A DNA stretch of 39,834 bases from a virus (Duplodnaviria > Heunggongvirae > Uroviricota > Caudoviricetes), in IMG/VR virus record IMGVR_UViG_2713896832_000004, one strand, 5' to 3'. Under the pieces are notes generated by a model that did not search any database, was not told where the DNA came from, and was given only the letters and a program-made list of their open reading frames with translations. Both the position numbers and the translations under genes were made by a program. Positions 260 through 31,610 of this stretch are shown here, piece by piece (the first letter of the stretch is position 1; every line of letters begins with the position of its first letter).

Positions 260-1444
260 TTAACTTTCCCGGCTGGAGAGTGAATCAATGTAATCAGCGT
301 ACCATTGCATCATTTCACGGCGGCCATCGAGATACAGGGCATGATTATAGGTACCCCTGATGGAATTTTTATCCACATGAGCTAACTGCATTTCAATCCA
401 GGCGGAATTAAAGCCTTGTTCATGCAGAATTGTACTCATGGTGTGTCTGAAACCGTGCCCTGTGAGTCTTCCCTTATATCCAAGTAATTCAATTACTTGG
501 TTAATGCTTTCCTTACTAATTGGTTTGCGGGGATCATTTCTACCGATAAAGACTAGGGGATGATGTTTTGAGATTGGTTCAAGCTGCTTAAATAGCATAA
601 TGACCTGCTCAGAGAGCGGCACAATATGAGGTCGCTTCATCTTCATTACTTCTGCCGGGATCTCCCACAATTTTGTCTCAAAATCGATATCTTCCCAGCG
701 TGCAAAACGCAGTTCTTGTGTTCGTACGCCGGTTAACATAATGATCTGAGTAGCTGTCTTAGTGATTATACTTCCGGTATAACCCGCCAGATCGTTGAGG
801 AAGTGGGGAAGTTCATTAGCAGTAAGAAAGGGAAAATGTACTTTTTTCGGTGTAGCTAAAGCACTGGCAAGATCGGGGGCTGGGTTATAGTCTGCCCGGC
901 CAGTAACAATTGCATAGCGGAACACCTCACCACAGCGCTGGCGGACCTTGCGCATTTTCTCCAGAGCTCCACGTTTTTCCATTTTACGCAGTGCTTCCAG
1001 TAACTCCATTGGTTTGATTTCGGCAATAGGGCGCTTGCCAATGTAGGGAAAAATGTCTTTTTCAAAGGTATCAATGATTTCATCACGATAGCGTAATGAC
1101 CACCGATCAGCTTTTGACTGGTGCCATTCGCGAGCAATAGCCTCGAACGTATTTTTCAGACTCATTTGCTGCGCGATTTTTTCTTCCTTTTTTGCCTCCC
1201 CTGGATCGCCTCCAGCAGCGAGGAGTTTCCTGGCTTCACTGCGTTTCTCGCGAGCATCGGCTAACGTTACATCGGGGTATACGCCAATAGAAAGCATCTT
1301 TTCTTTACCAGCAAAGCGGTACTTCATGCGCCAGTATTTAGAACCATTAGTGTTAATCAGTAGATACATACCGCCGCCATCAGCAAGCTTATAGGGTTTG
1401 TCTTTGGGTTTTGCGGTTTTCACTTTGATATCGGTTAATGCCAT
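260..1444 (-). CDS. Tyrosine recombinase, P4-family integrase of a selC-associated genomic island
   Basis: 394-aa ORF with ATG at 1444..1442 and stop at 262..260. The C-terminal half carries the tyrosine-recombinase signature (…GHGFRHTMST…, …HVDKNSIRGTYNH…). It sits about 300 bp from the 3' end of tRNA-Sec, the typical layout for tRNA-integrating islands. Confidence 0.85.
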   Translation of the reverse strand: MALTDIKVKTAKPKDKPYKLADGGGMYLLINTNGSKYWRMKYRFAGKEKMLSIGVYPDVTLADAREKRSEARKLLAAGGDPGEAKKEEKIAQQMSLKNTFEAIAREWHQSKADRWSLRYRDEIIDTFEKDIFPYIGKRPIAEIKPMELLEALRKMEKRGALEKMRKVRQRCGEVFRYAIVTGRADYNPAPDLASALATPKKVHFPFLTANELPHFLNDLAGYTGSIITKTATQIIMLTGVRTQELRFARWEDIDFETKLWEIPAEVMKMKRPHIVPLSEQVIMLFKQLEPISKHHPLVFIGRNDPRKPISKESINQVIELLGYKGRLTGHGFRHTMSTILHEQGFNSAWIEMQLAHVDKNSIRGTYNHALYLDGRREMMQWYADYIDSLSSRES

Positions 1445-1743: not shown

Positions 1744-1838
1744 TGGCGGAAGATCACAGGAGTCGAACCTGCCCGGGACCGCTGGCGGCCCCAACTGGAT
1801 TTGAAGTCCAGCCGCCTCACCGGAGACGACGATCTTCC
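1744..1838 (-). tRNA. selC: tRNA-Sec (selenocysteine, anticodon UCA)
   Basis: The reverse complement of 1744..1838 is GGAAGATCGTCGTCTCCGGTGAGGCGGCTGGACTTCAAATCCAGTTGGGGCCGCCAGCGGTCCCGGGCAGGTTCGACTCCTGTGATCTTCCGCCA, which is the 95-nt E. coli selC sequence as I remember it, including the encoded CCA. Confidence 0.95.
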
Positions 1839-5892: not shown

Positions 5893-7602
5893 TTACTGCA
5901 CCGGCTCTGTCGATGTAACTTCGCTACTGGAAACGACGCCCGCATTCATGGTTTGAGTCACTTGCTGCTTTTCAGCATTTACGGCGTGGAGTTGCCCGTT
6001 AACGGTAGGTTTCAGCGTGGCATTGGCCTGAATCGCACCGCTGGCAACCAGTTGAATATTGCCATCGCCAGTTATGGGTAACTCAGGCCATCCCCACTGT
6101 TGCAGAATATTCACCGGAACACCGCGTCCGTTCAGACTGATATGGGTCTGACGTTGTGGCGTTTGGGATACGCTGGCGGTGGCTTCCAGAATGCCTTTTT
6201 CAGTAAATGCACTCAGTTCGCTGATATTCACCGTGCTGCTGTTGGCGGTCAGCGCCAGCGACGGGCGACGAACATCAACACGATTGAATGTCGCGGCGGC
6301 GGCATTCAGATTCGCCGAGCCACTCCAGACGCCCCATTTATGATCGGTAACCAGCGTCAGGTTGGCACCGTAACCATCGAGCGCGGTGAGCTGCCACGGG
6401 AAGTCAGGGTCGATATCAATGATCAGATTGCGGCTGGCGCTAAATCTCTTCAGTTGCAGGCTGTTTAACCAACCGGGTGTCGTTTCCATCCACAACTGTT
6501 GCCAGTTTTTCGGCAAGGTATATTCCAGCCCGGCAATTGCCGCATCATCAAGGATCAACGTTTTCCCGTCACGCAGCCAGTTCCCTGACGTTCTGACCAT
6601 ACCCCCTTCCCAGCGGCTGGTGAACTGGCGCAGCGCTACGCCCTGCGGGGAAAATTCCGCGTTTATAATCGGGTCAAATAAATGCAGCGAACCATAAATG
6701 AACTCGCTAGCGTTCATCGACAGTTTGCCTTCCTGTGTCTGCCAGTCATCTTTACTGAAGGTCATGTTGCGCAAGCTGAGATCGAGGTCGGTCACCGCCC
6801 AGTCCGGACCTTGCAAACGAGCATCGATCACTTCCAGGCGACCAATCTGCAACGACGGGACAGAGCGTAATGGCGCAAAGAAGTCGGTTAGCGATTTTTC
6901 GCTTTGTAGACGTATATCCGCCATGCGCAGGTTTTCCACTTGCCAGCTGCCGTCGGCGTTACGCTGCGCGTTTCCGGTTAATGTCCCGCGGGCGATGTCG
7001 GCACCCAGGTTAGTCAGCGTAACGCGATCATTATCAATACTGCCTTCAATCAGTACATTGGTGGCAGGAACATCATTGAGCGAAAGCGATCCGGCACTAA
7101 ACTGAATCTGCGCCTTCGTACCCAGCACTTTACCGGCTTCTGGTGACCACGGAACCACGCCGCCATTTACCCGCTGCGCGCTCAGTTTCCATTCGCTATT
7201 CGGGCTATTAAACGCCATATCACGCAGTTGCAGACGATCGGCTTTGAACGGTAGCGGCGCGGTCTGGTCGGTGAGATTCAGCGTCCCGTTTTCCAGCAGG
7301 ATGGTATCGACATGGCGTGGTTCGGTCAGTTGCCGACTGCTTAGCGCAATGTCGACACTTTTTGCCACCAGGGTCGCGGGCTGACCATCACGACCAAACG
7401 TGACGTTCTCCAGCACGATATGAGATGGCGCGGAAAAACGGTGATCCATCGCCCCGAAGGCCAGATGATAGTCGCTATTCTCGGAAACCCATGCGCTGAT
7501 ATGTTCTGCTCCCCAGCGGGTTTGCAGAAGAAAATAGAGGCCAGCGATCACCACTAACAGAGCGATGAGAATGTAGAGAAGCAGCTTCCCAATAAATTTC
7601 AT
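5893..7602 (-). CDS. yicH: AsmA-family outer-membrane assembly protein YicH
   Basis: Track ORF 5893..7626. I take the start at 7602 (MKFIGKLLLYILIALLV…, N-terminal membrane anchor), giving about 569 aa. Confidence 0.85.
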   Translation of the reverse strand: MKFIGKLLLYILIALLVVIAGLYFLLQTRWGAEHISAWVSENSDYHLAFGAMDHRFSAPSHIVLENVTFGRDGQPATLVAKSVDIALSSRQLTEPRHVDTILLENGTLNLTDQTAPLPFKADRLQLRDMAFNSPNSEWKLSAQRVNGGVVPWSPEAGKVLGTKAQIQFSAGSLSLNDVPATNVLIEGSIDNDRVTLTNLGADIARGTLTGNAQRNADGSWQVENLRMADIRLQSEKSLTDFFAPLRSVPSLQIGRLEVIDARLQGPDWAVTDLDLSLRNMTFSKDDWQTQEGKLSMNASEFIYGSLHLFDPIINAEFSPQGVALRQFTSRWEGGMVRTSGNWLRDGKTLILDDAAIAGLEYTLPKNWQQLWMETTPGWLNSLQLKRFSASRNLIIDIDPDFPWQLTALDGYGANLTLVTDHKWGVWSGSANLNAAAATFNRVDVRRPSLALTANSSTVNISELSAFTEKGILEATASVSQTPQRQTHISLNGRGVPVNILQQWGWPELPITGDGNIQLVASGAIQANATLKPTVNGQLHAVNAEKQQVTQTMNAGVVSSSEVTSTEPVQ

Positions 7603-7690
7603 GGTCTTCCATCCCGTGAAATGCACATAAGGGAGTTATGCACGATTTACGCGCAATCCTCAAGGCGGGAATGGTGAAAGAGGTGAGACT

Positions 7691-7715
7691 GCGGCGGTAA
7701 TTATCTTACCGCCGC
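7691..7715. terminator. GC-rich hairpin just downstream of xanP, no T-tract (possible rho-dependent or REP-like element)
   Basis: Inverted repeat GCGGCGGTAA-ttatc-TTACCGCCGC, 8 nt beyond the xanP stop. Confidence 0.35.
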
Positions 7716-7722
7716 CAGTGAA

Positions 7723-9114
7723 TTACTGTTTTTCTGGTGGGAAAATCAGATTCAGCACGATGGCAGTAATACCGCCCGCGGCGATCCCGGAGGAGAGCAG
7801 GTTTTTCAGCCATTCAGGGGCAAACTGCAAAATCAGCGGCTGCTGAGACACGCCCAGACCAACCGCCAGCGACAGCGCGATAATCAGAATCGCCCGACGG
7901 TTCAGCGGCTCACGAGAAACGATACGCACACCGGAGGCGGCGATGGTGCCAAACATTACAAGCGTTGCGCCGCCCAGAACCGGTTCTGGAATGTGTTGTA
8001 CAAAACCGCTCACTGCCGGGAACAGACCCAGCACGATCAACATCAGCGCGACGACAAAACCGACATAGCGGCTGGCAACACCAGTCAACTGGATCACTCC
8101 GTTGTTTTGCCCGAAGCAGGAGTTCGGGAAGGTGTTAAACACCGCCGAAACAAACGAGTTCAGGCCGTTTGCCAGCACGCCGCCTTTCAGGCGTTTCATG
8201 TACAGCGGACCGGACACTGGCTGTTCGGAAACGTCAGAGGTCGCCGTGATATCGCCAATGGTTTCCAGCGAAGTGATCATAAAGACCAGCATCAGCGGCA
8301 GCAGCAGACTCCATTCAATGCCAAGACCGTAATAGAGCGGCGTTGGCACCATAATCAGTTCTTGCGTCATCGGTTCGTTGCTTTCTGGCAACATGCCCAT
8401 AAACCACGCCAGCGCATATCCGGCCGCCATCGCAATCACCAGTGAGGCCACGCGTAAGTAAGGGTTACGTTGACGGTTAAGCAGGATAATTAAGGCTAAG
8501 ACCACGCCTGCCAGCAGCAGATTTTTCGGTGCGCCGAAGGTGTTATCGCTCATGGCTGCGTAACCGCCGCCAATGGACGTTAACCCAACCTGAATTAGCG
8601 ACAGGCCGATAATCATCACCACAACGCCAGAAACCAGCGGCGTAATAATGCGGCGCGCCAGATGCAGAACGCGGGAGAGCACCATCTCGGTGCAACTTGC
8701 CAGCATCAACGTGCCGAACAAAGCCGCCATCATGGTAGGAACATCAGCACCACCGGTTTTCAGCGCGGTACCGCCCATAATCAGCGGGGCAACAAAGTTG
8801 AAGCTGGTGCCCTGAATAGACAACAGCCCGGAGCCAACCGGACCCCAGGCCTTAATTTGAATAATCGATGCCACACCGGAGGCAAACAGCGACATACTAA
8901 TAATGTGTTGCGTGTCTTGTGCCGGTAAACCCAGCGCCTGGCAGATTAATAGCGCTGGCGTGATCACCGCAACGAACATCGCCAGCAGATGCTGACAGGC
9001 GGCAAACAGGGTTTGAGGAAGCGGCGGACGATCTTCAAGACGGTAAATCAGTTCGCTGTTTTGAGTCTGCGCAACCGGTTGCGCATTTTCTGACTCGAGG
9101 GTGGAAACAGACAT
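7723..9114 (-). CDS. xanP: Xanthine permease (NCS2 family)
   Basis: Track ORF 7723..9123. The start [12 protein letters not shown]… at 9114 gives 463 aa; multi-TM NCS2-like sequence matching XanP (YicE) as remembered. Confidence 0.9.
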
Positions 9115-9393
9115 CGAAAACAATCCCGTGGTAGCAAAGCGGGCATTTTAGCTGACCGAAAGAGAAAAGCAAACGTTTGCCACATCCTCATCTAAATATT
9201 TAAATGAGATAAATGCACTTTTTTATATAACTTTTGGTATTTTTCTGCTTAAAATCCATGCCATTTGTTCATTAACAGCTGAGAATTTGACCCAGGAAAG
9301 CATAACTCGATACCCGTCATAGTTCATGAAGTTGCCACTGCGCGATGAAGTATGACGAGTATGAAAGAGTGATGCGGATACAAAGGAGTAACT

Positions 9394-10599
9394 ATGTTTC
9401 ATCTCGATACTTTAGCAACGCTTGTTGCCGCAACGCTGACGTTGCTGCTCGGGCGTAAGTTGGTCCATTCCGTCTCCTTTTTGAAGAAATACACCATACC
9501 GGAACCTGTTGCGGGTGGTTTGTTGGTGGCGCTGGCGCTACTAGTACTGAAAAAAAGCATGGGCTGGGAAGTCAACTTTGATATGTCCCTGCGCGATCCG
9601 TTAATGCTGGCTTTCTTCGCCACCATTGGCCTGAACGCCAACATTGCCAGTTTGCGTGCCGGTGGGCGTGTGGTTGGCATCTTCTTGATTGTGGTTGTTG
9701 GTCTGTTGGTGATGCAAAATGCCATTGGCATTGGTATGGCTAGCCTGTTAGGGCTTGATCCGCTGATGGGGCTGTTGGCCGGTTCTATTACGCTTTCCGG
9801 CGGTCACGGTACGGGCGCTGCGTGGAGTAAATTGTTCATTGAACGTTATGGCTTCACCAATGCGACGGAAGTGGCGATGGCCTGTGCAACGTTCGGTCTG
9901 GTGCTGGGCGGCTTGATTGGCGGTCCGGTGGCGCGCTATCTGGTGAAACACTCCACCACGCCGAACGGTATTCCGGATGACCAGGAAGTCCCGACGGCGT
10001 TTGAAAAGCCGGATGTGGGCCGCATGATCACCTCGCTGGTGCTGATTGAAACTATCGCGCTGATTGCTATCTGCCTGACGGTGGGGAAAATTGTTGCGCA
10101 ACTTTTGGCTGGCACTGCTTTTGAACTGCCGACCTTCGTCTGTGTCCTGTTTGTTGGCGTGATTCTGAGCAACGGTCTGTCAATGATGGGCTTTTACCGC
10201 GTCTTTGAGCGTGCGGTATCCGTGCTGGGTAACGTAAGCCTGTCGTTGTTCCTGGCGATGGCGCTGATGGGGCTGAAACTGTGGGAGCTGGCTTCGCTGG
10301 CGCTGCCGATGCTGGCGATTCTGGTGGTACAGACCATCTTCATGGCGTTGTATGCCATCTTCGTTACCTGGCGCATGATGGGCAAAAACTACGATGCGGC
10401 AGTGCTGGCTGCGGGTCACTGTGGTTTTGGCCTCGGTGCAACGCCAACGGCAATCGCCAACATGCAGGCGATCACTGAACGCTTTGGCCCGTCGCACATG
10501 GCGTTTTTGGTGGTGCCGATGGTCGGTGCGTTCTTTATCGATATCGTCAATGCGCTGGTGATTAAGCTGTATTTAATGTTGCCGATTTTTGCCGGTTAA
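9394..10599 (+). CDS. gltS: Sodium/glutamate symporter
   Basis: 401-aa polytopic membrane protein beginning MFHLDTLATLVAATLTLLLGRKLV…, divergent from xanP. Confidence 0.9.
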   Translation: MFHLDTLATLVAATLTLLLGRKLVHSVSFLKKYTIPEPVAGGLLVALALLVLKKSMGWEVNFDMSLRDPLMLAFFATIGLNANIASLRAGGRVVGIFLIVVVGLLVMQNAIGIGMASLLGLDPLMGLLAGSITLSGGHGTGAAWSKLFIERYGFTNATEVAMACATFGLVLGGLIGGPVARYLVKHSTTPNGIPDDQEVPTAFEKPDVGRMITSLVLIETIALIAICLTVGKIVAQLLAGTAFELPTFVCVLFVGVILSNGLSMMGFYRVFERAVSVLGNVSLSLFLAMALMGLKLWELASLALPMLAILVVQTIFMALYAIFVTWRMMGKNYDAAVLAAGHCGFGLGATPTAIANMQAITERFGPSHMAFLVVPMVGAFFIDIVNALVIKLYLMLPIFAG

Positions 10600-10601
10600 A
10601 A

Positions 10602-11468
10602 ATGAAAAAGCGTCGGAAGGAACCGGAAACGCTACGTGAACACTGTCGCCATATTTTTGGTGATGAGCCGCCAGTGCTCTGTGTATGGGAAACGGAATTT
10701 GATTACGCAGATGCCGAACTCAAGGCGCTGGCGGCTAAAGAGTGGCAGCAGATCAGCGAATGGGATTTGAGTGCTTACTATGTACTCAATCTCGTTTATA
10801 ACGAACCGATGCAAATAGAGTTGTTTCGCTATCTGTTTCCGCTCTGCCTGGCGCAATGGCATGAAACCATTTTAGCTGGCGGTTATGGTGATCACTTCGA
10901 AGAATCCTTAATGAAGGCATTGTGTCGGCCCTATCTCTGGCAGGAGATGATGAATGCTTCCCAACGCCAGCAGGTACGGCAATTTTTACTGGACACCGCG
11001 TTGCAGCGTATGGATAACGAGCGTGGTTTCAATAACGTTCTTTGCTGGCTGGCGGTGTTCAATACTCTGGGTGGGGCCGCGCCGTTAATTCGTTCTCTCT
11101 GGTCGCGCTGGTGGGCGCTGGATACGCCAGGAAAAGCGGTGTGTGCTATTCAGTATGCCGCGCATCTAATTTATCCCATAGAAGCCAATCCGTTATGGTC
11201 GCAAGAATGGATAGGCTGGGGGCATCCATTAGGCCATAAAGATGGCTGGTCCTCTGATAATCGCGCTTTTCTTCGCCAAATGTTAACACCTGAAATGATT
11301 GTGGCTGGCGTACAGGCAGCGGCTGAAATTCTGCGTGGTGAACCGGAAGGCGCAATGGCGGCGCGAATTGCACAGGATGCGTATGAGGCAATGGATATCC
11401 TCACTATCCAGATTGAAGATTTACTGCGTGACTTGTCTTGTGATGAGTCTGGTCATGCGTTGGAGTAA
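10602..11468 (+). CDS. Hypothetical protein, 288 aa, Trp-rich, soluble-looking, no recognisable domain
   Basis: ATG 3 nt after the gltS stop, and the stop codon overlaps the recG 3' end by 16 bp. Codon usage looks native (CTG, GCG, CCG, CGT rich). No family recognised by eye. Confidence 0.6.
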   Translation: MKKRRKEPETLREHCRHIFGDEPPVLCVWETEFDYADAELKALAAKEWQQISEWDLSAYYVLNLVYNEPMQIELFRYLFPLCLAQWHETILAGGYGDHFEESLMKALCRPYLWQEMMNASQRQQVRQFLLDTALQRMDNERGFNNVLCWLAVFNTLGGAAPLIRSLWSRWWALDTPGKAVCAIQYAAHLIYPIEANPLWSQEWIGWGHPLGHKDGWSSDNRAFLRQMLTPEMIVAGVQAAAEILRGEPEGAMAARIAQDAYEAMDILTIQIEDLLRDLSCDESGHALE

Positions 11469-17459: not shown

Positions 17460-19866
<2,407 letters not shown>

Positions 19867-22752: not shown

Positions 22753-23394
22753 ATGAAACCATATCAGCGCCAGTTTATTGAATTTGCGCTTAGCAAGCAG
22801 GTGTTAAAGTTTGGCGAGTTTACGTTGAAGTCCGGGCGCAAAAGCCCCTATTTCTTCAACGCCGGGCTGTTTAATACCGGGCGCGATCTGGCACTGTTAG
22901 GCCGTTTTTACGCTGAAGCGTTGGTGGATTCCGGCATTGAGTTCGATCTGCTGTTTGGCCCTGCTTACAAAGGGATCCCGATTGCCACCACAACCGCCGT
23001 GGCGCTGGCGGAGCATCATGACCTGGACCTGCCGTACTGCTTTAACCGCAAAGAAGCAAAAGATCACGGTGAAGGCGGCAATCTGGTTGGTAGCGCGTTA
23101 CAAGGACGCGTAATGCTGGTAGATGATGTGATCACCGCCGGAACGGCGATTCGTGAGTCGATGGAAATTATTCAGGCCAATGGCGCGACGCTTGCTGGCG
23201 TGTTGATTTCGCTCGATCGTCAGGAACGGGGGCGCGGCGAGATTTCGGCGATTCAGGAAGTTGAGCGTGATTACAACTGCAAAGTGATCTCTATCATCAC
23301 CCTGAAAGACCTGATTGCTTACCTGGAAGAGAAGCCGGAAATGGCGGAACATCTGGCGGCGGTTAAGGCCTATCGCGAAGAGTTCGGCGTTTAA
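22753..23394 (+). CDS. pyrE: Orotate phosphoribosyltransferase
   Basis: Track ORF 22738..23394. The start [36 protein letters not shown]… at 22753 gives 213 aa, with a GAGG ribosome-binding site. Confidence 0.95.
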
Positions 23395-23691
23395 AAATAT
23401 GCGCTGTGCAGGGTTTTTGCTGTGCGCAGCGTGATGCGCTTCAAGATATCGTGTTAATCTGCTTTCGCCAGCAGTGGCAATAGCGTTTCCGGCCTTTTGT
23501 GCCGGGAGGGTCGGCGAGTCGCTGACTTAACGCCAGTAGTATGTCCATATACCCAAAGTCGCTTCATTGTACCTGAGTACGCTTCGCGTACGTCGCGCTG
23601 ACGCGCTCAGTACAGTTACGCGCCTTCGGGATGGTTTAATGGTATTGCCGCTGTTGGCGCCTCTTTTGGCCGCCGTGATGTGGAGAGTGGA
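23395..23691 (+). ncRNA. Putative retron msr-msd non-coding region (boundaries approximate)
   Basis: About 300 bp of non-coding sequence directly upstream of a retron-type RT, rich in local dyad symmetries (GCGCA-n6-TGCGC near 23424..23439, GTACGC-ttc-GCGTAC at 23577..23591, GCGCTGACGCGC). Exact a1/a2 and msd boundaries were not resolved by eye. Confidence 0.45.
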
Positions 23692-24651
23692 ATGGATGCT
23701 ACCCGGACAACCCTTCTGGCGCTCGATTTGTTCGGCTCGCCGGGCTGGAGCGCCGATAAAGAAATACAGCGACTGCATGCGCTCAGTAATCATGCCGGAC
23801 GCCATTACCGACGCATTATTCTTTCTAAACGCCACGGTGGTCAGCGGCTGGTGTTAGCCCCTGATTACTTGCTCAAAACCGTACAGCGCAACATTCTTAA
23901 GAACGTCCTTTCACAATTTCCGCTTTCCCCTTTTGCTACAGCCTACCGACCAGGTTGCCCAATCGTCAGCAACGCGCAGCCACACTGCCAACAGCCGCAG
24001 ATCCTGAAACTCGATATCGAAAACTTTTTCGATAGCATTAGCTGGTTACAGGTCTGGCGTGTGTTTCGCCAGGCCCAGTTGCCACGTAATGTGGTAACCA
24101 TGCTGACCTGGATTTGTTGTTATAACGACGCGTTACCGCAGGGGGCACCAACTTCGCCAGCCATTTCCAATCTTGTGATGCGCCGTTTTGATGAACGCAT
24201 AGGGGAATGGTGTCAGGCTCGGGGAATTACCTACACCCGCTACTGCGATGACATGACCTTTTCAGGTCACTTCAATGCCCGCCAGGTTAAAAATAAAGTG
24301 TGCGGATTGTTAGCGGAGCTGGGCCTGAGCCTCAATAAACGCAAAGGCTGCCTGATAGCTGCCTGTAAGCGCCAGCAAGTAACCGGGATTGTTGTTAATC
24401 ACAAGCCACAGCTTGCCCGTGAAGCGCGCCGGGCGCTGCGTCAGGAGGTGCATTTGTGCCAAAAATATGGCGTTATTTCGCATCTTAGTCATCGTGGTGA
24501 ACTTGATCCTTCTGGCGATCTCCACGCACAGGCAACGGCGTATCTTTATGCTTTGCAGGGAAGAATAAACTGGTTATTGCAAATCAACCCTGAGGATGAG
24601 GCCTTTCAACAGGCGAGAGAGAGTGTAAAGCGAATGCTGGTTGCATGGTAA
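23692..24651 (+). CDS. Retron-type reverse transcriptase (RT-only retron, Ec107-like)
   Basis: Track ORF 23680..24651 (GTG). I prefer the ATG at 23692 (GGAG 6 nt upstream), giving 319 aa. RT motifs are present: LDIENFFDSI, QGAPTSPAISNL, YTRYCDDMTF (YxDD box), and the retron-typical VTGIVVN. Confidence 0.85.
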   Translation: MDATRTTLLALDLFGSPGWSADKEIQRLHALSNHAGRHYRRIILSKRHGGQRLVLAPDYLLKTVQRNILKNVLSQFPLSPFATAYRPGCPIVSNAQPHCQQPQILKLDIENFFDSISWLQVWRVFRQAQLPRNVVTMLTWICCYNDALPQGAPTSPAISNLVMRRFDERIGEWCQARGITYTRYCDDMTFSGHFNARQVKNKVCGLLAELGLSLNKRKGCLIAACKRQQVTGIVVNHKPQLAREARRALRQEVHLCQKYGVISHLSHRGELDPSGDLHAQATAYLYALQGRINWLLQINPEDEAFQQARESVKRMLVAW

Positions 24652-24658
24652 GAAAAGC

Positions 24659-24682
24659 GTCAGGCAGACGTTTCTGCCTGAC
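24659..24682. terminator. Palindromic hairpin at the RT/slmA junction (probable slmA terminator)
   Basis: Perfect 10-bp inverted repeat GTCAGGCAGA-cgtt-TCTGCCTGAC, followed on the minus strand by CGCTTTTCTT. Confidence 0.45.
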
Positions 24683-24696
24683 CGTTTAGGGGAGAA

Positions 24697-25293
24697 TTAC
24701 TGCAACTGCGCGGCAATTAGCGGCCAGCGGGCGTCAAAATCATCCGTCGGGCGGTATTTAAACTCGCTGCGGACAAAACGTGACAGCATACCTTCACAGA
24801 AGGCCAGGATCTGGCTTGCCAGCAGGGTTTCATCGGTGGTGTAACCTTCACCCTCACGCATTCTCTTTTCACGCAATACCTGACGCAGCTGCGCTTCAAT
24901 ACGCTCGAACAGCTGGTTGATGCGCCCTTGCAGGCGATCCTGTTCAAACATTAGCGCATGCCCGGTAAGGATGCGGGTCAGGCCAGGATTACGCTCACCA
25001 AAACCGAGAAGCAGCAACACAATCAGACGCAGGCGCGCTGTGGTGTCTTTCTCATCTTTCAGAATCAGGTTGATGCGAGTAATCAGGCTATCTTCGATAA
25101 ACTCAATCAGGCTATCGAACATGCGGGTCTTACTGGGGAAGTGGCGATATAGTGCCGCTTCGGAAACGCCGACAGAGGCAGCCAGTTTTGCCGTCGTGAT
25201 ACGTTGGCTTCCATCGCTGGATTCCAGCATCAGCGCCAGAGACTGAAGTATTTCCTCGCGACGGTTCCTTTTCGCAGTTTGTTTTTCTGCCAT
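24697..25293 (-). CDS. slmA: Nucleoid occlusion factor SlmA (TetR family)
   Basis: Track ORF 24697..25335. The start [24 protein letters not shown]… at 25293 gives 198 aa. Confidence 0.9.
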
Positions 25294-31247: not shown

Positions 31248-31598
31248 AGTAAATAGCTGACTTATGGATGTGCTGGGGATTCTATGTATTTAGCTGTGGC
31301 TTTACCATTACTTTTCCCGTTTTTGACTTAAATAGCAATTTACCCGCCAATTCTTGCTGAACATCTATACTTTTTTTGTATTTTTATGCGATTCATTGAT
31401 TTCTGCTGTACGTGCAGGAAGGAATCGCAGAGCAACAGTGAAAGAATATGGTTGCTAATGATTTTATTTGATTGATTTCTTTATTGAAAATCAACAATGT
31501 GCTTAAAAATCATTCGGGTCGGATTGCCGCGAAAGAAGTGATACACTAGCGCGTCAATATCAGTGCGGTATCAGTATTCAGGTAGCTGTTGAGCCTGG

Positions 31599-31610
31599 GG
31601 CGGTAGCGTG
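31599..31610 (+). promoter_or_regulatory. ops element (RfaH recruitment site) in the waaQ operon leader
   Basis: GGCGGTAGCGTG found about 50 bp upstream of the waaQ start, within the long AT-rich divergent waaA/waaQ leader. Confidence 0.6.

Follow-up and report, generated by a model that had tools for sequence, protein, structure and literature searches.

The element between pyrE and slmA matches retron Ec107, with a stand-alone reverse transcriptase and a predicted msr–msd RNA

Retron Ec107 (Retron-Eco5) was reportedly described by Herzer, Inouye and Inouye in 1992, with an msr said to be 75 nt long; we take its branch point to be G18 and the protein entry Q05804 to be the original 1992 deposit. 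The reverse transcriptase (RT) of Retron-Eco5 has a YCDD core, and the element stands in place of a 34-bp intergenic palindrome, where no mobile element lies close by (PMC6868368). It adjoins an orotate phosphoribosyltransferase gene and has no associated effector (PMC7736814). Its product, msDNA-Ec107, is a branched, RNA-linked molecule joined by a 2'-5' bond that is made in vivo, varies in length with RNase H and is expressed more strongly on starvation (PMC6868368, PMC8989520). Ec107 was not among the retrons that Millman et al. tested for defence (bioRxiv 10.1101/2020.06.21.156273), and the stand-alone, effector-free nature of its lineage has been reported by Mestre 2020 (PMC7736814) and in the SPIRE preprint (10.64898/2026.05.14.725207).

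Three other groups serve for comparison. Type III-A1 retrons, in which the RT is joined by a phosphoribosyltransferase (PRTase)-like protein and a winged-helix protein, form the sister RT lineage, and are so called in the SPIRE preprint also (10.64898/2026.05.14.725207). Ec86 (Eco1, type II-A), which has been studied more than any other retron, has a nucleoside deoxyribosyltransferase-like effector, a prophage location and a YADD box, whereas Ec107 has neither effector nor prophage and carries YCDD. Clade 11 resembles Ec107 in consisting of (msr-msd)-RT cassettes without an associated protein, but by its published description it forms another RT clade, differs in its ncRNA families and occurs mostly in Actinobacteria (PMC7736814).

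The pyrE–slmA locus and its reverse transcriptase

We analyzed a window of 39,834 nucleotides in which pyrE and slmA are separated by a spacer of 1302 nt (23395..24696, Table 1), filled by a 297-nt non-coding leader and an RT open reading frame of 319 aa. In K-12 (RP437) the spacer is 36 nt and, with both stop codons included, reads TAA, AGAAACTCGCCGGATGAAAAGTCATCCGGCGTCATA, TTA. One A at each end is common to both alleles, thus 1300 nt take the place of the 34-nt palindrome. These measurements agree with the initial annotation, which had proposed a 1.3-kb gap, a structured leader of about 300 bp and the replacement of a short palindrome. It had also placed the two genes in one operon; they are indeed neighbors, but they are the convergent ends of two operons, rph-pyrE and dut-slmA. 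Its description of the retron as inserted is less secure, because the same site is occupied in Pseudocitrobacter.

Table 1 Features of the pyrE–slmA element and its flanks, in window coordinates.
Feature	Position	Strand	Basis
pyrE, orotate phosphoribosyltransferase	22753..23394	+	Left flanking core gene, outside the retron; ORF list; RefSeq annotation of a genome with 100% identity
Hairpin just past the pyrE stop	23401..23432	+	Paired in the MFE fold; no T-run; not called by terminator scan
Candidate extended -10 promoter TGtTAATCT, ncRNA-RT transcript	23452..23460	+	Weak: 3/6 to TATAAT plus TG
a2 inverted repeat, 5' arm of closing stem	23466..23482	+	Inverted-repeat scan, folds (17 bp including G-U); 17/17 pairs covary in the family
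msr	23466..23540	+	Hairpins ~23487-23507 and ~23508-23528; folds; helices 3 and 4 covary; 3' end approximate
Candidate branching (priming) G	23483	+	Unpaired directly after a2 in the MFE fold, opposite G23642; inferred
msd, msDNA template	23535..23641	+	Fold, covariation; ends inferred, within ~2 nt
a1 inverted repeat, 3' arm of closing stem	23643..23659	+	Inverted-repeat scan, fold, covariation
Ec107 retron RT	23692..24651	+	319 aa from ATG (323 aa from upstream GTG); GGAG Shine-Dalgarno 7 nt upstream
10-bp GC-rich hairpin between RT stop and slmA stop	24659..24682	.	Terminator scan; sits where the K-12 palindrome is
slmA (ttk)	24697..25293	-	Right flanking core gene, convergent with RT, outside the retron; ORF list and RefSeq annotation

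The RT translation contains DIENFFDSI, QGAPTSPAISNL, YCDD, VTG (as QQVTG, region Y) and NAQPH (region X, NAxxH), and hence every motif that had been quoted for it (YCDD, QGAPTSPAISNL, VTG and DxxxFFxSI). It matched RVT_1 in Pfam (3.5e-21) and, over its full length, the PADLOC model RT_Ec107-like as its top family (E 7.3e-132, 437 bits), followed by the RT_III-A models (4.9e-94, 313 bits) of the published sister clade. In UniRef100 the sequence belongs, as an exact member, to the cluster that Q05804_ECOLX represents. The AF2 model of the RT (pLDDT 94.3) has retron RTs, aligned over the whole chain, as its best 18 fold matches in the PDB. Comparison with the Ec86 RT aligned 313 columns end to end (TM 0.71-0.72, 26% identity) and revealed no extra domain, and a PDB sequence search gave 4e-40 for the Ec86 RT vs 1e-7 for the GsI-IIC RT. 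Retron models thus head the PADLOC, NCBIfam and PDB results, as the proposed retron family would have it.

We found no difference from Ec107/Eco5 (RT clade 2 "Ec107-like" in Mestre 2020) in any feature compared. The site, the 34-nt palindrome, the 319-aa YCDD RT and its sequence cluster are all alike, as are a predicted upstream msr-msd long enough to hold an msDNA of 107 nt and the lack of an accessory ORF or prophage context. RT model, cluster, YCDD box, position and palindrome all support the earlier recognition of Ec107, and the label "Ec107-like" was too cautious. We are highly confident that the element is retron Ec107 itself, making its msDNA by the retron mechanism. It is already known, and hence no discovery. 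Other E. coli alleles differ from that of the window by up to ~6% of nucleotides; strain E2348/69, a carrier like WCHEC020031, has a 94% allele.

The msr–msd RNA and the element edges

Compared with shuffled sequence, the leader folds far more stably: z is -4.3 over 23395..23700 and -5.9 over 23466..23659. Its minimum free energy (MFE) fold has a 17-bp a2/a1 stem, an unpaired G23483, two msr hairpins and a long msd hairpin, so that by prediction the leader is a textbook msr–msd RNA. The same logic of a1/a2 stem, priming G, msr hairpins and msd hairpin is found in Ec86, where the priming G similarly lies opposite a G beside the a1/a2 stem. A structure search had been suggested as a check on the leader. 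Rfam returned no retron or msr family, either for 23000..25000 at E up to 1 or for the whole window at the gathering threshold, and we therefore built a covariance model, R1, from the leader and its relatives, and the family evidence for the RNA comes from this model.

In other genomes, R1 matched an RNA upstream of the RT and on the same strand in ~65 of 80 related loci. Covariation was counted on the alignment fitted to R1, in which 58 of 64 base pairs show double changes and 90.3% of cells are paired, vs 27-50% with the partners slid. The seven close relatives, taken alone, contribute six compensatory pairs in the leader RNA. G is the commonest base across the family in the column of position 23483 (alignment pair 24/347).

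The msd length of 107 nt was taken from the name of the element (nomenclature of PMC6868368). Counting 107 nt from 23641, the base beside a1, places the other end at about 23535 and gives an overlap of 6 nt with a 75-nt msr. The predicted msDNA is the reverse complement of the msd, 107 nt with its 5' end probably opposite 23641, and would form a long DNA hairpin (-22.9 kcal/mol, z = -3.75). The msd itself folds as a three-way hairpin. Across 60 distant relatives its core, GUAC..GCACA..UGUGC..GUAC in the RNA, shows conservation of 90% or more, and as GTAC..GCACA/TGTGC..GTAC it is kept across phyla.

We then examined the signals around the RNA. A sigma-70 scan called no promoter for the retron. 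Among 66 related loci, 34 have a TGn-extended -10 element that precedes the start of the ncRNA by 7 to 17 nt, vs 1.8% of random positions. The hexamer of the window lies below the threshold of that test, and its TGtTAATCT aligns with TGcTATGCT in Pseudocitrobacter. An extended -10 is therefore a candidate here by comparison within the family. At the left edge of the element, the hairpin after pyrE probably serves to terminate or insulate pyrE; Escherichia sp. and Pseudocitrobacter have a hairpin at the same place with a different stem sequence. The hairpin between the two stop codons resembles a terminator of slmA on the minus strand, and it probably ends the retron transcript as well.

Distribution, neighbors and rival explanations

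The pyrE–slmA interval is polymorphic in E. coli, as the initial annotation had suggested checking. The retron is carried by 382 of 5426 complete genomes and absent from 93%, and all 382 copies are single, chromosomal, full length and annotated as intact. Among E. coli alleles the RT has a dN/dS of 0.15–0.23, with dS up to 0.19, similar to the flanking genes, and these rates indicate purifying selection on the RT. An RT that keeps the catalytic box was found in 523 species genomes. The same pyrE–slmA site is occupied in Escherichia sp. and Pseudocitrobacter, with the retron always more diverged than its flanks. As judged from these comparisons, the retron and rph-pyrE/slmA-dut have diverged together between Escherichia and Pseudocitrobacter.

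No ORF of at least 40 aa in the insert is free of overlap with the RT or ncRNA. In the 80 related loci we found no recurrent effector gene beside the RT and no neighbor cluster in more than 15 loci. Recurrent neighbors there encode DAHP synthase, prephenate dehydrogenase, EF-G, TyrRS and a response regulator, a sample of further neighbors is likewise metabolic or regulatory, and those characterized are mostly housekeeping, metabolic or regulatory genes. Neither a linked accessory gene nor a fused effector domain, as expected of a tripartite defence system (types I-XIII), was found in the insert, the RT or the 80 loci. Type III-A retrons differ in having a PRTase-like accessory gene, with or without a winged-helix gene; the insert and the 80 loci have none, and the neighboring pyrE encodes an ordinary housekeeping enzyme. 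The element is thus an RT-only retron without a second ORF, as had been claimed. Of the two places proposed for an effector, within the RT or elsewhere, the former is unlikely because the 319-aa RT aligns end to end with retron RTs that contain no effector.

Two sets of candidate genes were considered and rejected. Two clusters of antisense ORFs overlap the RT, in 25 and 21 of the 80 loci, and could have been a hidden second gene. We do not regard them as genes, since they fall within the RT segment of highest conservation, most loci lack them, and in the window the frame is cut short (71 aa). In Lachnospiraceae, a 535-550-aa ORF overlaps the RT end in 8 loci, and ORFs of 130-216 aa and then 702 aa lie downstream in ~11 loci. 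These encode an AraC-type response regulator, a choline-binding-repeat protein and EF-G, and reflect host synteny of related species, not effectors. PADLOC found nothing significant for these candidates; the EF-G-like ORF alone gave a match, a marginal one to LeoBC (E 6e-4).

We weighed four other explanations of the locus. There is next to no probability of the RT being other than a retron RT (a group II intron maturase, or an RT of the DGR, Abi or DRT type). The RT does match group_II_RT_mat weakly (61.9 bits, cut-off 300), as well as Drt2 and Drt3a, but retron models score 3 to 7 times higher, the NCBIfam group II intron, Drt2 and Drt3 models fall far below them, and in the fold search the group II, DRT2, DGR and AbiP2 structures trail the 18 leading retron RTs with much weaker E-values. 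Moreover, a predicted msr-msd RNA lies upstream, and neither intron RNA domains (Rfam) nor DGR repeats (repeat scan) were found. We regard this reading, which the initial annotation had named as one that could overturn it, as refuted. A role for pyrE as the effector, making a type III-like system with a genuine phosphoribosyltransferase, is highly improbable. The idea was raised by Mestre 2020 (PMC7736814) and draws on the sister type III-A1 clade, which pairs with PRTase-like proteins and supplies the second-best PADLOC models, and on pyrE adjacency being kept in Escherichia sp. and four Pseudocitrobacter-group genomes. However, 5425 of 5426 E. coli genomes have pyrE at this site, whether or not they carry the retron. 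Retron-free K-12 and the retron-bearing strains share the PyrE accession WP_000806177.1, and PyrE thus shows no sign of adaptation. A pyrE homologue lies beside the RT in only 5 of the 80 loci (one neighbor cluster, c30), and Mestre 2020 counted such adjacency in only 2 of 59 (PMC7736814). This reading is largely refuted.

An ordinary tripartite anti-phage retron with its effector elsewhere in the genome, a split system, is a possibility that we take seriously while judging it to fall short of an even chance. All retrons of proven function are abortive-infection systems that include an effector (PMC7736814; bioRxiv 10.1101/2020.06.21.156273), the RT is under purifying selection, and the conserved msd core would suit recognition by a partner protein. 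Against this, no known protein is a candidate partner, and most host genomes of orphan retrons have no homologues of known retron-associated proteins (Mestre 2020, PMC7736814). The family spans Bacillota and Proteobacteria with no common neighbor, so a co-inherited trans effector would need separate upkeep in hundreds of species. The loci characterized sit among housekeeping and metabolic genes, not in defence islands or prophages. A decaying or neutral relic, which lost a PRTase effector and drifts on only because it lies between essential genes, would fit both the loss of an associated protein in this branch suggested by Mestre 2020 (PMC7736814) and the absence from 93% of E. coli genomes at no obvious cost. 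The low dN/dS, the 382 intact copies, the catalytic box kept in 523 species genomes and the compensatory changes that keep the ncRNA structure all speak against decay; we disfavor this reading and consider it improbable.

Proposed mechanism and role

We propose that a transcript starting near 23466 would pair a2 with a1, as the predicted structure and covariation suggest. The 319-aa RT, translated from the same RNA, would prime DNA from the 2'-OH of the unpaired G23483 and copy the msd leftwards from ~23641 for ~107 nt. Host RNase H1 would then trim the template, leaving a branched RNA-linked msDNA hairpin, a small single-stranded DNA. The priming and copying chemistry is established in the literature for Ec107 and other retrons.

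Our reading is that Ec107 is an old, largely vertical and selectively kept msDNA producer, and we hypothesize that its RT-msDNA complex acts through a host or phage partner encoded elsewhere. For the role itself, phage defence with a trans-encoded effector is conceivable, though we would not bet on it, and a non-defence cellular role, for example one linked to starvation or stationary phase, is about equally likely. Other roles, or none, take up the remaining probability. Also short of an even chance is the stronger proposal that Ec107-like retrons are not abortive-infection modules and instead form a domesticated, mostly vertical, effector-free msDNA system. The conserved msd core, a candidate promoter of their own in many relatives, the housekeeping and metabolic setting and the co-divergence together suggest the msDNA as the working part. 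Perhaps in starved cells, it could engage, as a decoy or ligand, a widely conserved enzyme of host or phage that binds or modifies DNA. If the domesticated-system proposal were true, the 34-bp palindrome allele of most E. coli could be the derived one and the retron the older occupant of the site.

Ec107 has been in the literature since 1992, and publications of 2020 and 2026 both record it as stand-alone, so the locus carries little weight as a discovery. New here are the same-site occupancy in Pseudocitrobacter with its co-divergence, the conservation of the msd core across phyla and the frequent extended -10 element. In a large metagenome survey the Ec107-like lineage is reported to rank second in abundance among retron groups; it has no known effector or function, and thus the model of a retron as a tripartite toxin/antitoxin defence does not cover this lineage. 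The conserved msd core, a candidate promoter of the retron's own, the purifying selection on the RT and the cross-genus syntenic site provide experimental handles on it in a genetically easy host.

Identity of the reverse transcriptase

The reverse transcriptase (RT) encoded between pyrE and slmA contains all the motifs quoted in the initial annotation (YCDD, VTG, QGAPTSPAISNL and DxxxFFxSI, here DIENFFDSI), and its retron "region X" motif, NAxxH, reads NAQPH. Pfam assigned RVT_1 alone. The best PADLOC model was RT_Ec107-like (7.3e-132, 437 bits, model positions 3-307 of 307), followed by RT_III-A models, and retron models also led in NCBIfam (170–230 bits, against 62 for group II maturase, 57 for Drt2 and 50 for Drt3a). 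The exact sequence, present on at least 1000 contigs, is in the public protein collection, where it belongs to the UniRef100 cluster whose representative is Q05804_ECOLX; we take Q05804 to be the original Ec107 RT entry. Cluster members at 90% identity or more come from E. coli, Escherichia fergusonii and "unclassified Escherichia" (cryptic clades), thus the retron is genus-wide rather than E. coli-specific. A protein search matched thousands of retron RTs, the top matches being 45–86% identical and from Enterobacterales and many gut Firmicutes. Scanning one genome per species for relatives with an R[YF]CDD[ML]TFS box gave 523 genomes, of which the best 80 were kept.

We built an AlphaFold2 model of the RT on a 40-sequence family alignment (mean pLDDT 94.3). 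The best 18 matches among solved structures were all retron RTs (Ec86, Eco7/Ec78, Ec83, Eco2/Ec67 and Eco8), with the Ec86 RT aligned over 313 columns. Lower in the ranking, with E-values weaker by many orders of magnitude, came group II intron RTs, DRT2, DGR RT and AbiP2, and the sequence-level search was equivalent; a closer match to group II, DGR or Abi RTs was thus not seen in either fold or sequence. Since the model aligns with Ec86 RT over this length and its top matches are all retron RTs, it appears to leave no room for an effector domain, which speaks against the RT-intrinsic partner offered earlier as one option. The window element is the already-known retron Ec107 (Retron-Eco5), as had been recognized from the sequence, and the checks proposed at that point gave the predicted outcomes.

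The msr-msd RNA and its candidate promoter

The leader folds considerably more stably than shuffled controls (z = -4.3 and -5.9) and adopts the standard retron architecture, the parts of which are tabulated. By analogy to Ec86, synthesis presumably starts opposite 23641. If so, a 107-nt product would end at 23535, and this putative product (23535..23641) would form a stable hairpin as DNA (z = -3.75).

Positions of the retron parts and of other features in the window
Feature	Position	Strand	Length	Basis or detail
pyrE	end at 23394	same as RT ORF		
Candidate extended -10, TGtTAATCT	23452-23460			
a2/a1 stem	23466-23482 (a2) with 23643-23659 (a1)		17 bp	fold and inverted repeat
Unpaired G	23483			fold; opposite G23642
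Two msr hairpins	3' of G23483			fold
Long msd hairpin	last part of leader structure			fold
RT ORF	23692..24651		319 aa	
slmA	end at 24697	opposite to RT ORF		
P4-type tyrosine integrase	260..1444	-		Arm-DNA-bind_3, Phage_int_M and Phage_integrase domains
selC (selenocysteine tRNA)	1744..1838	-		adjoins the integrase
ORF between gltS and recG	10602..11468	+	288 aa	no Pfam match; 16-nt overlap with recG 3' end
ligB (NAD-dependent DNA ligase B)	about 17625..19252	+		
JUMPstart RNA element	31572..31610	+		Rfam RF01707, 55 bits

No Rfam family matched the leader, therefore we built a covariance model, R1, from a seed alignment of the window leader, another E. coli allele, Escherichia sp. and four Pseudocitrobacter-group genomes, which already held compensatory changes at six pairs. 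R1 found the RNA in about 65 of the 80 related loci, on the RT strand and ending a few tens of nucleotides 5' of the RT start. In the R1-derived alignment, which is fitted to R1 itself, 90.3% of cells are paired, compared with 27–50% when partners are slid, and 58 of 64 pairs show changes on both sides. Both the fold and the covariance search uphold the structured non-coding leader of the initial annotation.

In 34 of 66 loci a TGn-extended -10 precedes the RNA start by 7–17 nt (random positions, 1.8%), which argues that the retron RNA is transcribed from its own promoter and starts near a2. The window version is weaker and is not among the counted loci.

Across 60 distant family members from Bacillota and Proteobacteria (among the compared loci L010–L083), the msd core A.GUAC..C.GCACA(N5)UGUGC...GUAC...U.C.C shows conservation of 90% or more; just 2 of 53 msr positions reach that level. 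This core folds into a three-way hairpin with a second arm of variable sequence, and E. coli Ec107 carries the compensated variant GUACG/CGUAC. Such conservation is unusual for msd sequences, which are commonly considered variable. The frequent promoter and the msd-core conservation are additions of this analysis; the latter may already show in Mestre's supplementary structure drawings.

The pyrE-slmA site

The order pyrE, RT, slmA with a 1.3-kb gap was correctly described, the spacer spanning 23395..24696 (1302 nt). Its counterpart in the retron-free K-12 strain RP437 is 36 nt (AGAAACTCGCCGGATGAAAAGTCATCCGGCGTCATA, flanked by TAA and TTA). One A at each side is common to both spacers, thus 1300 nt in the window take the place of a 34-nt palindrome in K-12, in agreement with the described replacement of a short palindromic intergenic sequence. 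The genes do not, as first supposed, share one operon context: pyrE belongs to the rph-pyrE operon and slmA to the dut-slmA operon, and the two converge, which places the retron in a shared terminator region.

Among 5426 complete E. coli genomes, 5425 have the junction; the suggested presence/absence comparison revealed the retron in 382 of these. Every carrier has a single, full-length chromosomal copy with the RT annotated intact; 271 genomes match the window at 99% identity or above, 107 at 95–99% and 4 at 90–95%. The RT dN/dS of 0.15–0.23 (four alleles) indicates purifying selection, while an RT dS (0.05–0.19) comparable to that of pyrE/slmA in the same strains (0.08–0.14) places the age of the retron alleles close to that of the core genome around them.

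The rph-pyrE-retron-slmA-dut position is kept in Escherichia sp. MOD1-EC7003 and four Pseudocitrobacter-group genomes, a shared site in other genera that this analysis adds. Nucleotide identity to the window is 86% for the RT and 95–98% for the flanks in the former, and 69–71% and 80–87% in Pseudocitrobacter. The retron is more diverged than its flanks in every case, and its divergence scales with that of the host, as the identities drop together. Simple deletion does not convert either allele into the other, thus the classic "insertion replacing palindrome" may run in either direction, and long residence with repeated loss fits the data at least as well as repeated insertion. The replaced palindrome agrees with the initial annotation, but "inserted" is one of two possible histories, the same site being filled in Pseudocitrobacter. 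The Pseudocitrobacter-group loci (L005–L008; Pseudocitrobacter spp. and Enterobacteriaceae bacterium G50) hold a diverged Ec107-type retron at about 9780..10930, with RT amino acid identity of ~69%; the RT stop overlaps the slmA stop and the hairpin between is absent.

The window has further features. The integrase adjoins selC, a classic island insertion site, and a selC-integrated genomic island appears to run off the left window end. The 288-aa ORF (RefSeq, hypothetical protein) is a second presence/absence polymorphism: 1911 of the 5426 complete E. coli genomes have it, and K-12-like genomes have a short spacer in its place. ligB is frameshifted according to the annotation of L003 (14526..16153), a genome with 100% identity to the window across the 1851-nt retron region (23100..24950 of the window), in which a 258-nt "hypothetical protein" is annotated across the ligB start. 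The JUMPstart element precedes the waaQ (rfaQ) LPS-core operon, as expected ahead of RfaH-dependent operons.

Neighbouring genes and possible roles

In the best 80 loci, we grouped all ORFs lying up to 5 kb from the RT into clusters. No recurrent effector neighbour emerged, no cluster exceeding 15 of 80 loci save the RT and two antisense ORF clusters within it, which are artefacts and not genes. Recurrent neighbours were DAHP synthase, prephenate dehydrogenase, EF-G, tyrosyl-tRNA synthetase, a response regulator and a choline-binding-repeat protein; PADLOC gave no significant match to them, with one marginal LeoBC match (E 6e-4) to the EF-G-like ORF. A sample of 20 other immediate neighbours comprised adenylate cyclase, CdaR, galactarate dehydratase, FtsX-like permease, topoisomerase, GMP synthase, DAP dehydrogenase, regulators and similar. 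The neighbours examined are mostly housekeeping, metabolic or regulatory genes.

In L046, a Candidatus Egerieimonas MAG, an ORF at 7510..9195 (+) overlaps the RT stop by 4 nt and encodes a predicted AAA-ATPase with a PD-(D/E)XK nuclease domain (PF09820 + PF08011). It is the sole nuclease-like immediate neighbour among the sampled loci and may be either a locally acquired effector or a mobile gene that is unrelated.

The effector-less status of Ec107-type retrons is already published. Mestre et al. 2020 (PMC7736814) found the Ec107 branch of RT clade 2 without any associated protein, and a 2026 SPIRE preprint (10.64898/2026.05.14.725207) scored the accessory architecture of its 192 "clade2_Ec107like" retrons (93% Bacillota, 91% host-associated) as "absent". 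Ec107 was left out of the defence assays by Millman et al. (bioRxiv 10.1101/2020.06.21.156273).

Retron msDNA synthesis is established biochemistry (summarised in PMC6868368, PMC8989520). Judging by its anatomy, Ec107 would prime from the 2'-OH of the branching G, the RT would then copy the msd, and RNase H1 would trim the template. We rejected pyrE as the effector: the gene occurs whether or not the retron is there, has an identical protein accession in carriers and non-carriers, and adjoins the RT in just 5 of the 80 relatives. The purifying selection on the RT and the conserved RNA structure make a decaying relic unlikely. About equally plausible are a split defence system with a putative partner acting in trans and a domesticated non-defence role, the latter perhaps tied to the starvation-induced expression attributed to Herzer 1996 as cited in PMC6868368.
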